DNA of 64,000 nucleotides from Raillietiella orientalis (lineage: Eukaryota): contig JAYWIR010000060.1 in NCBI GenBank assembly GCA_036172245.1, forward strand, positions 124,001 to 188,000, given 5' to 3'. This document shows, in pieces, positions 1 through 16,000 of this stretch. Positions within the stretch are counted from its first letter, which is position 1. Each line of letters begins with the position of its first letter. Both the position numbers and the translations under genes were made by a program. The notes under the pieces were generated by a model. The model worked only from the letters and a program-made list of their open reading frames with translations. It did not search any database and was not told where the DNA came from.

Positions 1-404
1 TCCGACCCACACTCGGGGTAAGGGGTCCTGCCACTTCTCGTTTGATTACCCCTGTGGGAAATCCTGAAAGGCGTCTCCCGAAGAGAGGCGGTAACGGCGG
101 CGGATCCTGGAAAGAGCGGAGGAGATACCGAGCAAAGGAAGGGAGGTAGTCCATCCCCAACGTCCCTAAAACGTCCTCTCTCTATTCCCAAGACCTTCAA
201 AAGAAGGGGAGGCAGGAAGGGAGGGCGGCGACCTCACTACCGGCTCGCCGGCCTCCCTCCCACTGCCGCCTGCGCATTCATGGCTCTCTTCACGATAGGA
301 GGAGCCGGTCCCTCCCCTTCCTCGCCGCTTTTCGACCGGAGACAGCAGGAAACAAGGAATAAAGGACAGGATGAGTTTTCTATTTTACCTCCCCCCTCTT
401 TTAC

Positions 405-1802
405 CTGGAGGACGCAGTGGCTGCAGGTCAAGTCAGCCGGTGGTTCTACCTTCAGAATGTAGACATCGCCGTCCTGAGGAGGAATTCGGTACTCCTCGCC
501 CTCGTCGTTCCATATCTTCAACACGTTGCTAGGGGATGAAAGTGGTCTCGAGAAGGGCATGGTTTTCGCTTTAGCAATAGCAGCAGTTGTGGAATCGCCC
601 TCATCGGGAAAGAAGGGGAAAGAAGAAGAAGCGCATTCGTGGTGCCACGAGTGACCCTCCGTCGGTTTGCGCGCGGTAGAGTGCGCACCGGGCGAATGGC
701 CTCAGGGGATGAAGGTGAAGCGCCTTTTCCGGCTGCCACCTCCTCCGAACGGAAAGGAGGAAACGGGAAGGGGGAGGGGGAAGAGGTGGACGCGATGACG
801 GGGAGGAGCAGGGATCCTCCGTTGCCGCCACCGCTTCCTGACTGCCCTCCCGCGCATGCGCCGAGGCGGAGGGGCTGCTGTTACAGAGGCAGACTTACGC
901 GTCCAAGCACTCCTGGGTGGCATCGGATGAGGCTGCAGAAATATCACACAAGCGGAAGATGAAGTGACCCTGCGGGTTTGAGGTCAGGTGAACTTTCACC
1001 AGGATAGGCTGGAATCGAGAAGAGATTGGGAGATTCAGCGGAAAGGACGGGGTAGGGGCCGTAACCTCTCCCTTGCAGTAGGTCCTGACGATGGTCCCTT
1101 GGCCGTACGTGCCTCCCAACTCGTGGGGCCGGGGTTCAGGTGCATCGTAAGGATCGCCGCAGATCCCGCATTTACCCTGGTTGACGATCCAGTGGGTCTG
1201 AGAAGGAGCCGGTCGGCGTGTTACAACGAACGTACAGCGATACACCCCTTTGCTCCTCCCTCACCCCTTTCGGGGACGAGAACGGAGACCGCCGGAGCAG
1301 AGAAGAAGGGCAATGGACTTACCCAGAATCCTCCGCAGAACCCTTGCGTTTCTTCAGGATCGATGGGGACCGGGAAACCGAGGGAGCCCATGGACGCCCT
1401 GGATGGGGGTTCGATCATCCTTCCGTGGGCGCGGGCATGGCGCACCTGTCAAGAGGGAGAGAACTCCGTCCAGAGAAGCAGCTTCCGGGAGATGAGGGCT
1501 ATTTCCCCTTGTTCACGGCCCCGCTTCCAGGAACCCAGGGAAAACGCAAAGGAGGGAAAAGGAAGACGAGGAAAAGAGGATAGAGAAGGAGGAAGGGGAG
1601 AGGAAGAAGAAGGTGGAGGGGAATGAGGAAGAGAAAGGGATACGGGGGGAGAGAAGGAGAAGAGGCCTTACCAGGAACCTTCTTGAGGGTTGATGGGCTT
1701 CAGGAAACCGAGGGAACCGAATGCCCTTACCAGGAACCCGAGGAATGAGATCGCGAAGCCCGCGGCCACCAGAAACACACGCGATGTGCGGAGACCGCTC
1801 AT
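405..1802 (-). CDS. AA15 LPMO-like secreted protein, paralogue A (chitin-binding type-4 domain); 3' exons lie outside the window; second brace His replaced by Pro
   Basis: GT-AG exons: 1802-1731 (MSGLRTSRVFLVAAGFAISFLGFL, signal peptide), 1445-1323 (VRHARA/HGRMIEPPSRASMGSLGFPVPIDPEETQGFCGGFW), 1197-1066 (THWIVNQGKCGICGDPYDAPEPRPHELGGTYGQGTIVRTYCKGE), 1008-899 (PILVKVHLTSNPQGHFIFRLCDISAASSDATQECLD), 528-405 (NVLKIWNDEG...ADLTCSHCVLQ). Intron phases 0,0,0,2,0 join into one open frame. The HGR..PPSR, CGG, GKCGICGD, HE.GG.YG.G and LTC.HCVLQ motifs are diagnostic of AA15. The WxY..GNNWG exon is not found in 1-404. Confidence 0.92.
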
Positions 1803-10052: not shown

Positions 10053-13000
10053 TCATGGCGCTGTTTTTACACAACGGCAGTGGCTGTCAGGGCAGTAGTG
10101 GAGAGCCGCTAACACGCAGTTCACTTCGCACCAGTGAGCCATGCCGGGAGAATTCTCCCACATCTTCGCAGGAACTGCCTCCAGGCAGGTGATTGAGGGA
10201 TCCTGCGTGCCTTCGAGCTCATCCAAGGCAGGCTGCACATCACTTGATTCCATCGTGGTACCTTCAGAAGAGGGAGGTTGGGAAGTGAATGAGGAGGCCG
10301 GTGGTGGCTCAGGCAAAACACCAAACACAAAAGGGAAGTGAATGAGGCGGCCGGTGGTGGCTCAGGCGGGGAAGTGGATGAGGCGACTGGCGAAGACACA
10401 AGAGGAGGGGAAGTAGATGAGGCGGTCGGTGGTGGCTCAGGCGGGGAAGTGGATGAGGCGACTGGCGAAGACACAAGAGGAGGGGAAGTAGATGAGGCGG
10501 TCGGTGGTGGCTCAGGCGGGGAAGTGGATGGGGTGGCCGGCAAAGACTCAGAAGGAGGGGAAGTGGATGAGGCAGCCGGTGGAGATTCAGGAGGAGAGGA
10601 AGTGGATGAGGCAGCCGGTGGAGACTCAAGAGGAGAGGAAGTGGATGAGGCAGCCGGTGGAGACTCAGGAGGAGAGGAAGTGGATGAGGCAGCCGGTGGA
10701 GACTCAGGAGGAGAGGAAGTGGATGAGGCAGCCGGTGGAGACTCAGGAGGAGAGGAAGTGGATGAGGCAGCCGGTGGAGACTCAGGAGGAGAGGAAGTGG
10801 ATGAGACAGCCGGTGGAGGTGGAAAGATGGTGGAGGAAGGTGGAGGATTTGCAGCAGATGTAGGGTTCACTGTTGTTGGGGACTCTTCAATGGCGGCTGT
10901 CGTGGAGTCTGGTACAGCGTCTGGATTGGAAGTCGTGACGGAAGTGGGAGCGTCTGCGGTTGTCACGAGCAAAGTTTCGGGATTCGAGGTAGTCGCAGGG
11001 CTGCTGGTGGATGCAGGGCTGGTGTCCTGGTAGACGGATGCGTACGTCGTAGATGGCTTCTCTTCTGTGCTCTCATCCTCTCCGAATAGTTCAGGCTGCA
11101 CGGGCGGAAACGTGGTCGGAGCAAAGAACGGATTTTTCAGGATGGGGAAGAGCTCTGTCAGGCATCTGTCGTCATTGTTTGGACACGTGAAGACGGTCCC
11201 GTGCTGGGTATCCCTACAATTTGGCTTTCGAGTTCGAAAGGGGGGGGAGAGGGAAACGCTCGGTGCCCCTACCTGGAGTCAACAATGGCGACGTCTGCGC
11301 AAGATCGAAAGGTCTCTTGAGGTCCGCATCCCAAAGCACTGCTTCCATTCTCACACATTCCCCAGTTGTTTCCAGAGATGTATTCCCACTGAATAGGGGT
11401 ATTAGAGAAATTCTAATAATGAATCCGCCCGGCGCAGCCGACAACCATCCCCTCACTCTCATCGCTCACTCTTTCACGGCGAGGAAGACAAGAAAAAAAG
11501 CCTCCAGCCGTTTCCGCTCTTTGGCAACCAAAGGAGGTTCGGTGCGGCGTCGCGTTGCCGCTCTCGCATGCGAGCGTCCCTCATTTCCAACGTGTTCAAA
11601 GTGTTGTGGTGAGAACGATGAGGCGGATCATCGAAAGCAGTGCTGGGCAACTTGGGGTGCCCTTCCCAGAGTACGAAATGCACCTCGATGTCAAGGTTTC
11701 CCTTACGGGTGTCCAGTGGCATTCAAGTTAAAGAAGGCACGAAACAACCGTTGTCTCCCTGAAGGACGCGGAGCCGGCAAGTTCATCCCCGTAGAAGCAG
11801 TAGTGGGGCGGCGCAGGAAGGGGACATATTGCTCCGATCCCTGCTCAAGGCGAGGCAGGCGAGGCGCAGTCCAGTGACCCTCAGGGACGCCTGCCCATTC
11901 TCTTTTGAAAGGAGGACCTCCTATTCGCACTTCCACTAAAGTCTGGAGAGCCACCCACGGAGGACCCATCTCAACGAGCGCGTTTTTGAAAATGCCCATC
12001 GGGCAAGAAGCAGGCTGCCACTCCCGCAGCACGGAGCAGAGGAACTCGGACGCAGGGACGAAGTTCAGGCACTTCGAGGATGGATGAGCACCCCGTCCCG
12101 GAAAATCGTGGCATGGAGACGCTGTCCCGTCAGGAACGACGCTGTTGAGAGTGATGGGATGGAAGCGGGCGGCGCAAGGGTGTGCCGATTCCTTCATTTT
12201 ATTTCAGGACCAAAGGGCTGCACGAGGTGCCCTTTCGTTCCTCATTCATCAGGCAAGAGGCGCACGCCGTTTCTTCGACGGAAAGTCCACTTCGGCTCTG
12301 CATTAGCAGAACGGGGGAGAGGATGAGAATCCCATAATGCACCCCTCCGAGGCGAGCGGCTGGGGGGCTGAAGAGTGGGAAGGTGGGCTGAAGAGGGCGG
12401 CAGAGGTCGTTTGCGAGGACTGCAGAGAGGACGCGATGGAAGGCGCGCCGGCAGGGTTCAAAGAGGAGTCCGTCGGTCAGGCAGGAGTGTATGGTGAGCG
12501 CTCAGCGTCTCCGTGCAAGAGACAGCAAGAATGGGAAATAGCGCGATGGGAATAAACAGGAACTGAATCCTGTCCGTCTTGGAGGTTCGGTTGAGACCCC
12601 AGGAGATGCAACAGAATGCCAGAAGTCGCTGGTTGAAGTCCTTAAACAAACCGGCGTGCGTCCCTGTGTGTCTGTGCGCGTGTCCGTGTGTGGAACATGC
12701 GCGGAACTAGCCGAGTGAGTGACATGAGACCGGCTGAGAATCCACATCGACCCGTATGCGTCTCCTCTAATTAGGGGAGTCCACCTTCTTGAACCCATAC
12801 GGGTCCTCTAAGGAGTTCCCCCGCACTCCGAAACCCCTACGAGGGCCGGGACGGTCCGAGGCAGCGCCGTCCGCTGCCCAATTGGCGCCTCCCTCCTCAG
12901 TGGGAAGGGACGGGGTGGTGACGGCCCCACCCGGGATGTGACGTTTTCGACCGGAAGCTGCGAGTACACTCCCCCGCCTCCCGTCCCCAGCGCCGCGAAG

Positions 13001-16000
13001 AGCGCCAGCCGACTTCTGCACCTCCCATTGCAGACTCCGGCAGCGCATCTCCGCTGCCGGAGGGCCCCATTCTCTCTCCGAGGTGGTCGCTGGTAGCACG
13101 CTCGGTGCTCATGTCACATAACATGTGCCGCCGACTGCGTCCCGACCCCTCCTTGACCCCGCAATTTCCTCCCCCACTCGTATCCTTCGTTCCCTGAGTA
13201 AGGGGGGGCTCGAAGGGAGCAGCATAGCTGGAAGAGAGGCTCCGTGTTTCCTGGAAGGACCCTGGGGGGTTCACTTCCGGTTTCCCTACCGGTCGACGTG
13301 GGCATCCAGTTTCCCCCAGCGTCGCATTCGACCCAGCGCCATCCTGAGAGGGAAACTCGAAACCCATGCGATACGCCCCGTCCTTCTCGGTGACGGTCGG
13401 TCCTTCCTCCCCCCTCTCGGACGGGATTCGAACTCACGACATGCGGTTCCGCAGCCACGCGCCCTCACTCTTCCGTGCGCACGCGCGTTCCAGGAAGCGG
13501 CGGCCTTGCACCATCACCTGCAGCACGCAGTGTTCGCAAGTCAGGTCCTCGGGCAGCTTCAGAGTCACCTTGTGCACTCTGCTCTCAGCGCCGACCTGGT
13601 ACTTCTGACCATCTTCGGGAAGCACCTTCAGCACGTTCCTGGAAGCAGAGGGAGTCGAGCGCAGCATTTCAGGAGGCATCCCCGCGGGGCAACTGCTCCC
13701 CGTCGGAAGGAGAGGAGAGGTGGCAGTCCCTCGGGTGAGCCCTTACCGGTCCAGGCACTCTTGGGTGGCGTCGGCTCCTCTGCCGGAGATGTCGCAGATC
13801 CGGAATTCGAAGTGACCTCTGTGGCTAGCCGTCAGCTGCACTTTGGCGATGATGACCTACAAAGCACGCGCGCGCCTGCATCCTCCCGAACTGGCTCGGT
13901 CGGGTGGGGGTCGGATCCCTTTCCGACTCCCTCGTTCCCTTTCCCATCCCCGGACTACTGGCAAAGAGGGCACGCGGCAGTCTCGAAACGGAGTAGATGG
14001 CGTTACGGGCCGGGGGGAGGCAGGACAAACAGGGTCGGGACGGACGGCGGCCACACCTGAGGATGCGCCGCCCTCTCGACCCCGTTTGCCCTTCCCCCTC
14101 CCGGCCCGTTAGATTCCCTCTCAGGAGATTCATCCCACGGTCAGCCGGCCCCTCCCTTGCGGGTTCTGCTTCAAGCAGGTGGTCCGTCGTGTCGGAGGAC
14201 ACTGCCTGCCCCTGCCCCCATCCATCTCCCCGTTTCGCGAAGAAATAAGGGAGTCCCCCACGGAAAGCAGCCCGCGTCCCGGAGGGCTGCTCGAGACTTC
14301 AGGGTCCTTTGAAGCCGCTCAGCGTCCTCGCTGGAGGCGCGCTCGCGGGGGGCACTTTCCACCCCTGCGGCCACGGGAGTCGTCCTGGGCACTTCCGGGC
14401 TCCCGAGCGAGCGCTTCGCTCCGCGATTATTGGAGGGAGGAGCGGCGCCCTCCTGGACCTTTCGACCGGGCGCTCCCCCTCTAGGCCGGGAGCGGCGAGG
14501 CCGGTCCGGCGCTCGCAGCGCGCGGAAGGAGGTCCTCTGCGACAGGAAATGACGGGGGGAGGTCGGGTTGCCCGGAATGAAGCAGCTCAAAGCTCCTCCG
14601 AGGGCCGGGACGGTTCCGAAGCAGCGCCGTCTGCTGCCCAATCGGCGCCTCCCTCCGCAGCGGGAGGGGACGGGATGGCGGCGGTCTCGCCCGGGATGCG
14701 GAGTTTTCGATCGGAAGCGGCGAGGACAGACCCTGGGCAGGCGCCCCGGAAGCGCTACGGAACCCACAGCGCCGGTCGAAACCCCGAAGGATCGCAAAGA
14801 GCGAACTCACGGGTCGATTACTTACCCTCCGTTTGTATATCCATGTACAGATTCATTCGAACGTGCGTATTTGTTACCATACGTATTATTAATATGTATA
14901 AATGTACACATGCATCAAGGATTATAATAATAAATAAGTGTACGTGTTACGCATATGGATCGAGGAGTACATACTAATTGTAACGTGCGTATTATTAATG
15001 ATAATAGTAGCATTTCTAGTGCACATTTACTGGTAATCATAAACATGCGTTCTATTGATATAATTAATAATAATCATTGATATGATATTAATATGCATCG
15101 TAAGGATCATTAAAAATACATACGAGTGGGTTTTATTACATATATTTATTCATATATGTAATAAAAACATGTATATTCATATATGTGAATATTAAAAGTA
15201 CATATTATGTTTCTATATGTGGAAAGTGCATATGAAATGAATGAATAAATAACGAATTGTAGAAGCAAAATAGTGGAGAATAAGAAAACGTATATAATAA
15301 ATATGTGTTTAATATAATAACATGTTCAATAAATATGCGTTTTCACTTTGATCTTAGCCAAAAGGCCTATAATATGTAGTAATGCCTAGTATTTGTAGTA
15401 ATATCGATAAATGCGTGCCTCAAGGTGAATTTGTACATTAACCTGTACATCGATATACACATGTGATGAGCTTTTTTTTGCGATCTGTAGGGGTGTGGGG
15501 TCCTCCCTCACGGCAGTCTCTCTTCATAGAGGTCTCCCCGTCGCGGGTGCCCCGATGCCCCTCCAGAAGGAGCCGAGGGGCAAGGCATGGGTCTCAATTC
15601 CGTCCCTGCGAAGGGCCAGGTTCTGGACTCGCGGGCCAATGGCGATCTCGAGATCCTGGCGCCGACGCCAAAGGAAAGGGGAGGCACCACCAGCTCGCTG
15701 CGGGGTCACCGCGGATTCGGAGAGGTGCGAGCCCTTCTGCCGTGGGCGTGCGTCCTGCTCACCCCCATGGCCGGCAGCCGTGGCGCCAGCGAGGGAGGAT
15801 CGCCCACGGAGTCCATCGTGAAGACGCGCGAGGCGATGGAGGGTCCGCCAGCGCTGGCGCCCCTGCCAGCCCCACCCCCGGCCGAGGACTCCGCCCCGCG
15901 CTCCGCTTACCTGCCCTCGGTGGTACTCCCTGACCAGGATGCCCTGGCCACACCTTCCTCCGAGCTCGTGGGTCCTGGGGGCAGGGCTGCTGTAGGCGTC

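Follow-up and report, generated by a model that had tools for sequence, protein, structure and literature searches.

An AA15 LPMO paralogue without the second histidine of the copper brace next to a canonical AA15 gene in Raillietiella orientalis

Introduction

A copper histidine brace is the defining feature of LPMOs, and a competent AA15 enzyme uses its copper to cleave chitin or cellulose oxidatively. For the AA15 protein TdAA15A (PDB 5MSZ), the passages of PMC9156745 and of section 9 of PMC5823890 that deal with the active site describe a copper bound by His1 and His91, a copper site completed by the active-site residues Ala89 and Tyr184, and a flat protein surface flanked by the aromatics Tyr24 and Tyr166. 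PMC5823890 further describes ten conserved cysteines in AA15, which form five disulfides, and according to its section 9 the active site is absolutely conserved in 214 CAZy members.

Natural proteins that depart from this scheme are on record in other families. An AA9 member lacking the brace was described by Frandsen et al. (2019, J Biol Chem 294:17117), as cited in PMC10486138. The fungal X325/Bim1 proteins, which are not AA15, have an LPMO-like fold and retain both the brace and copper binding; in the parts of PMC7924993 and PMC10952591 that treat them, the coordination sphere is modified, no polysaccharide-cleaving activity was detected, and a role in copper transport, not in polysaccharide cleavage, is implicated. 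For AA15 itself, no description of members without the brace was found in the full-text collection that we searched.

Herein, we analyzed a stretch of 64,000 nucleotides from Raillietiella orientalis, referred to below as the window, which holds two AA15 genes. Gene A, like the AA9 protein of Frandsen et al., is a natural member of an LPMO family without a complete brace, and it differs from that fungal AA9 protein in belonging to AA15. Unlike X325/Bim1, it has not kept the brace. Gene B, a neighbor 14 kb away, is a canonical AA15 gene.

Two AA15 genes in the window

The window is eukaryotic DNA with a GC content of about 57%. Of the 101 open frames that reach 165 aa in the 64 kb, none matched Pfam, and Rfam returned no family at the gathering threshold. 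Besides the two AA15 genes, no gene in the window is recognizable by these screens. Pfam likewise recognized no family in gene A fragments that covered one exon or a read-through; this is uninformative, because a fragment of gene B also remained scoreless, such fragments being too short.

Gene A is an AA15 LPMO paralogue whose exons 1-5 together form an open frame 187 codons long (Table 1). The exons have AG…GT borders, the four introns within the window are all GT-AG, and a GT follows exon 5. The sequence-only reading of this DNA had overlooked exon 5; its motif strings and coordinates, including those of His1 and the CCG codon, were all reproduced. It had also called the gene intact, which holds for exons 1-5, open and with canonical splice sites, and does not extend to the final exon, which is absent from the window. 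Positions 1-404 were searched by tblastn with six homologues as queries and, at word size 2, with exon 6 of gene B; the matches did not rise above chance (best E 1.7), and no final exon of gene A was recognized. A candidate reading …HRGNQ…, seen by eye in the same 404 bases, had no in-frame join to exon 5 and was rejected.

The join of exons 1 and 2 is in phase 0 and puts VRHARA directly before His1, which by eye fits the −3/−1 A-x-A rule; VRHARA is followed by HGRMIEPPSRASMGSLGFPVPIDPEETQGFCGGFW. Secretion of the gene A product and cleavage before His1 are predicted from this context. The string GGTTCCTG followed by GTAAGG at the exon 1 donor has a second occurrence at 1672/1671, and a splice made there would break the frame.

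Gene B (16234-11273, minus strand) was found by tblastn with the gene A product. It reads HGRLVDPPSRASMWRYGFPGCRDYNDH…LTASHRGHFEFRIC…WEYISGNNWG…GPQETFRSCAD, a textbook AA15 sequence. Its N-terminus aligns to TdAA15A 1-35, and its last exon of this core carries the Trp/Tyr166 region, the QExF motif with the axial residue, and three cysteines. The candidates for exon 1 of gene B were unconvincing.

Table 1. Exons and related features of genes A and B, numbered from the first letter of the window
Feature	Coordinates	Strand	Description
Gene A	1802-405	-	AA15 LPMO paralogue; five GT-AG exons
Gene A exon 1	1802-1731	-	ATG 1802-1800; 24 codons, phase 0; donor GTAAGG; encodes MSGLRTSRVFLVAAGFAISFLGFL
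Gene A exon 1 hydrophobic core	within 1731..1802	-	VFLVAAGFAISFLGFL; signal peptide as judged by eye
Decayed copy of exon 2 3′ half, with donor	1666..1730	-	start of gene A intron 1; from alignment and a tblastn match 1802-1680
Gene A exon 2	1445-1323	-	123 nt; VRHARA, His1 (CAC, 1427-1425), SMGSL, IDPEET, then FCGGFW
Gene A exon 3	1197-1066	-	132 nt; CGICGD and PRPHELGG core; TdAA15A 37-80, 45.3 bits
Gene A exon 4	1008-899	-	110 nt; PILVKVHLTSNPQGHFIFRLCD, containing HLTSNPQGH; ends in phase 2; Pro (CCG, 975-973) for His91 and Ser for Ala89
Gene A exon 5	528-405	-	124 nt; ...DLTCSHCVLQ; donor GTAAAA; exceeds exon 5 of gene B by one codon
Gene A intron 5, start	1..404	-	without a recognizable final exon; final exon off the window or lost
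Gene B exon 2	16234-16112	-	His1, SMWRY, RDYNDH; same length as gene A exon 2
Gene B exon 3	16042-15911	-	same length as gene A exon 3
Gene B exon 4	13856-13747	-	LTASHRG; brace His codon CAC
Gene B exon 5	13638-13518	-	
Gene B exon 6	11388-11273	-	WEYISGNNWG...GPQETFRSCADVAI; TdAA15A 158-193; Phe on Tyr184
Gene B exon 7 (probable)	10124..11213	-	putative tail rich in Ser/Thr/Pro; ten 39-nt tandem units followed by a hydrophobic end

Active-site residues of gene A

In a phmmer search against PDB chains, exons 3-4 of gene A matched TdAA15A with an E value of 3.3e-13. The segment ILVKVHLTSNPQG aligned to TdAA15A 81-93, with Pro on His91 and Ser on Ala89, which bears out the earlier assignment of Pro to the second brace position. 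Exon 2 alone gave no match to 5MSZ even at E<=10. When the gene B-5MSZ alignment was combined with the A-B alignment, gene A had Gly, Ser, and Pro at Trp14, Arg15, and Tyr24, respectively. Gene B retains His1, His91, Ala89, Trp14, Arg15, Tyr24, and QETF, whereas gene A is changed at His91, Ala89, Trp14, Arg15, and Tyr24; the strings SMGSL, IDPEET, and LTSNPQG of gene A stand against SMWRY, RDYNDH, and LTASHRG of gene B. Surface aromatics had been read as lost. This is upheld for Tyr24, now Pro, the only surface aromatic at stake that section 9 of PMC5823890 documents.

Gene A shares with TdAA15A the CGxCGD and PRPxExGG core, the cysteine pattern of the covered exons, and, by the −3/−1 rule, an N-terminal histidine after the signal peptide. 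Exons 2-5 cover seven conserved cysteine columns, and gene A retains the cysteine in each; the conserved cysteines had been read as preserved, and the remaining three of the ten belong to the final exon, outside the window. The second brace histidine is replaced. On these residues, gene A is not filed here as a competent AA15 LPMO, since the defining second brace histidine is absent.

Purifying selection on gene A

In a 60-row IQ-TREE phylogeny, gene A fell within the AA15 family, where genes A and B were sisters with an SH-aLRT support of 98. Their products are 52% identical over 162 columns. Exons 2-4 of the two genes are equal in length, exon 5 differs by one codon, and the exon phases are identical. 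The three introns between exons 2 and 5 have lengths of 125/69, 57/2054, and 370/108 (A/B) and no significant similarity, whereas the DNA identity between exons is 60-68%. Among the 68 residues of exons 2-4 that are identical between the two, 31 are coded by different codons. The Nei-Gojobori estimates over 162 aligned codons were dS 1.37 and dN 0.417, giving a dN/dS of 0.305, well below 1; this ratio is approximate, because dS is near saturation (pS 0.63) and the value averages both branches since duplication. When replacements were assigned with 218 outgroups, the median numbers were 19 for gene A only and 13 for gene B only, a ratio of 1.45.

Over the 187 codons and five exon borders of exons 1-5, gene A has neither a stop nor a frameshift, and none of its splice sites is lost. 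We compared this with simulated neutral substitution, without indels, of the 163 codons in 4000 trials. The frame stayed free of stops in 0.2% of trials at 0.685 substitutions per site and in 6% at 0.17. At 0.1 and 0.05 per site the values were 20% and 41%. Among columns at least 85% conserved that lie within its exons, gene A keeps 36 of 43 and gene B 41 of 43. The seven departures of gene A are Leu4Met, Trp14Gly, Arg15Ser, Asp26Glu, a Gln-to-His change, His91Pro, and a Leu-to-Pro change; every Cys and Gly column of this set stays intact. The GC3 of gene A is 117/163 (0.72), compared with 334/552 for intron GC (Fisher p 0.0096), and that of gene B is 0.86.

Considering that dN/dS is 0.30, that exon lengths and phases are conserved while the introns can not be aligned, and that gene A changes only about 1.45 times as fast as gene B, long-term pseudogene decay is unlikely. 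The earlier suggestion that the changes are not random decay is thus sustained by the dN/dS, the exon lengths and phases, the seven cysteines kept, and the 36 of 43 columns. Gene A has been under purifying selection through most of its history, with which a recent death is compatible.

It is the recent death that gives the strongest rival account its form. Gene A would be a pseudogene or an unexpressed relic, constrained for a long time and then killed or truncated at its 3′ end, with the active-site losses as the first damage. The longer end branch of gene A (0.70, against 0.43 for gene B), its GC3 below that of gene B, the loss of the nearly invariant Trp14, Arg15, and His91, and a rearrangement scar in intron 1 all speak for it, and in 20-40% of trials the frame survived 0.05-0.1 neutral substitutions per site. 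Yet the frame and splice sites of exons 1-5 are undamaged, the A-B dN/dS is not near 1, and the amino-acid rate of gene A exceeds that of gene B only modestly. The larger changes, as placed by the alignments, include the active-site His91 and Ala89 and the surface Tyr24, while the Cys and Gly columns are spared. The last exon is also absent from the 404 bases searched, and no orthologue of gene A was found (see below); the missing exon, however, is weak evidence, because the matching intron of gene B is 2.1 kb long. The Trp loss, the GTTACG donor of intron 3, and the decayed copy of exon 2 are compatible with a gene that recently stopped mattering. We regard this account as a serious one, though on the doubtful side.

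AA15-like proteins without the brace

At E<=0.001, an exhaustive phmmer search with gene A retrieved 1023 proteins, of which 139 reached 1e-10 and not one reached 1e-30. A word-indexed protein search gave six matches with 39-46% identity. Over the matched stretches, identity to the best relatives was 39-61%; the nearest AA15s were arthropod or mollusc sequences with an identity of at most 58%. No orthologue of gene A was found by the word-indexed search, by exhaustive phmmer, or in metagenome contigs, where 514 pattern matches included none confirmed as a relative. Since none of the 1023 phmmer proteins reached 1e-30 and the word-indexed matches were only 39-46% identical, gene A has no orthologue on record in these collections.

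The family alignment comprised 325 domain copies from 304 proteins. At the His91 column, 281 copies had His, 30 had a gap, and none had Pro; His was thus found in 281 of the 295 copies covering the column, and the other 14 had a different residue there, some of them being short fragments with a doubtful alignment. Trp14 was Trp in 223 of 234 covering domains and Gly in none. After rows with a coverage below 75% were dropped, 218 domains were kept, in which the second histidine was absent in seven, the first in seven, and both in six. The domains lacking one or both brace histidines were P0117 (Solemya velum), P0156 (Saccostrea cucullata), P0123, P0026, P0229 (Aplysia californica), P0034, P0232, and P0007. 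P0007 and P0034 each have several domains, and in both proteins a brace residue is lost in one domain only.

Like gene A, P0117, P0156, P0229, and P0232 have a residue other than His at the His91 column, and P0232, with His1 kept and Leu at position 91, has the pattern of gene A. In other respects these proteins differ from it. Of the seven well-covered cases, six lack both histidines, all retain Trp14 and Arg15, and none has Pro. On a FastTree phylogeny of the 218 domains with genes A and B, brace loss required at least seven changes. P0117 and P0156, both with Arg1 and Ile91, were sisters with a local support of 97. They form a cross-species pair, whereas gene A is without a known orthologue. 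In the brace-less AA9 protein, the N-terminal residue is reportedly Arg. Judged by this alignment, AA15-like proteins without the brace are rare yet recurrent, and at least once the condition is common to two bivalves. As the proteins of Solemya velum and Saccostrea cucullata are sisters, bivalves may have an old clade that lacks the brace.

Possible other ligands at the copper site

The second alternative is that gene A binds copper or another metal, and may even be redox-active, through His1 (amino group and side chain) and a third ligand such as His86, Gln92, or His94. Gene A retains His1 in its A-x-A cleavage context, and X325 offers a precedent for a modified coordination sphere in the parts of PMC7924993 and PMC10952591 devoted to it. 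The two candidate histidines carry the argument less far. The one in the GHF motif, at TdAA15A position 94, had been proposed as a compensating ligand; it occurs in gene A, in canonical gene B, and in 26 other domains of the family, in a column where Tyr, Trp, or Phe is the usual residue. Being shared so widely, it is not a change tied to brace loss, and this proposal is not supported. The histidine at TdAA15A position 86 is shared with 11 other domains, so that neither is a compensatory change, and Pro at position 91 is no ligand. We consider an altered metal site improbable.

The last alternative, that an error of assembly or sequencing produced the Pro codon or the whole of gene A from a normal AA15 gene, is highly implausible, because CCG of gene A and CAC of gene B are two bases apart, which a single-base error does not explain, the two genes differ at 32-40% of exon bases and have unrelated introns, and their many coordinated amino-acid differences are all in frame.

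A possible non-oxidative role

We consider it about an even bet (probability roughly 0.5) that gene A is a maintained, probably non-catalytic LPMO-fold paralogue. It would have arisen as a lineage-specific tandem duplicate of the canonical AA15 gene represented by gene B. The copper brace would then have been lost through replacement of His91 with Pro, with the neighboring Ala89 becoming Ser, and the N-terminal loops by the active site would have been remodeled through the changes of Trp14 to Gly, Arg15 to Ser, and Tyr24 to Pro. The product would still be under purifying selection as a secreted, disulfide-stabilized protein with the LPMO fold. Most likely it would not oxidize polysaccharides, copper binding and activity both presumably being lost, and it may act non-catalytically through its changed binding surface. 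The Trp14 loss counts against a maintained gene, as it may reflect destabilization rather than a new function.

More broadly, and at somewhat less than even odds, animal AA15 families may repeatedly yield secreted brace-less proteins with the LPMO fold that are selected for a non-oxidative role. Gene A would represent an early stage, with His1 kept, His91 lost, and the substrate face remodeled, whereas the Arg1/Ile91 pair of Solemya and Saccostrea would be old and fixed. If brace-less AA15-like genes are expressed and maintained, oxidative capacity is overestimated when animal "LPMOs" are counted by domain searches, and in animals the fold would also serve a non-redox purpose, in the biology of chitin or the matrix. 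Brace-less relatives like gene A sit unnoticed in public data. The natural pair of a canonical and a brace-less gene 14 kb apart would be a convenient system for studying what the fold does without copper.

Probable C-terminal extension and intron elements of gene B

The apparent stop after ...AIVDSR in gene B coincides with a donor, AG/GTAGGG (11273/11272). A 59-nt intron from this donor to the acceptor AG at 11215-11214 would make an in-frame join to a Ser/Thr/Pro-rich frame of 363 codons, which includes ten 39-nt tandem units at 10364-10857 and has a hydrophobic stretch at its end. Gene B probably carries a mucin-like C-terminal extension, a feature that PMC8615602, in the part that concerns it, describes as common to many AA15s.

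Two introns of gene B contain further repeats or insertions. A dispersed repeat of 119 nt is present with 83% identity at 12855-12973 in intron 5 and at 14615-14733 in intron 3, and it may be a short interspersed element. The 2 kb intron 3, otherwise GC-rich, also contains an AT-rich block of ~650 nt at about 14840-15500, which looks like an inserted element.
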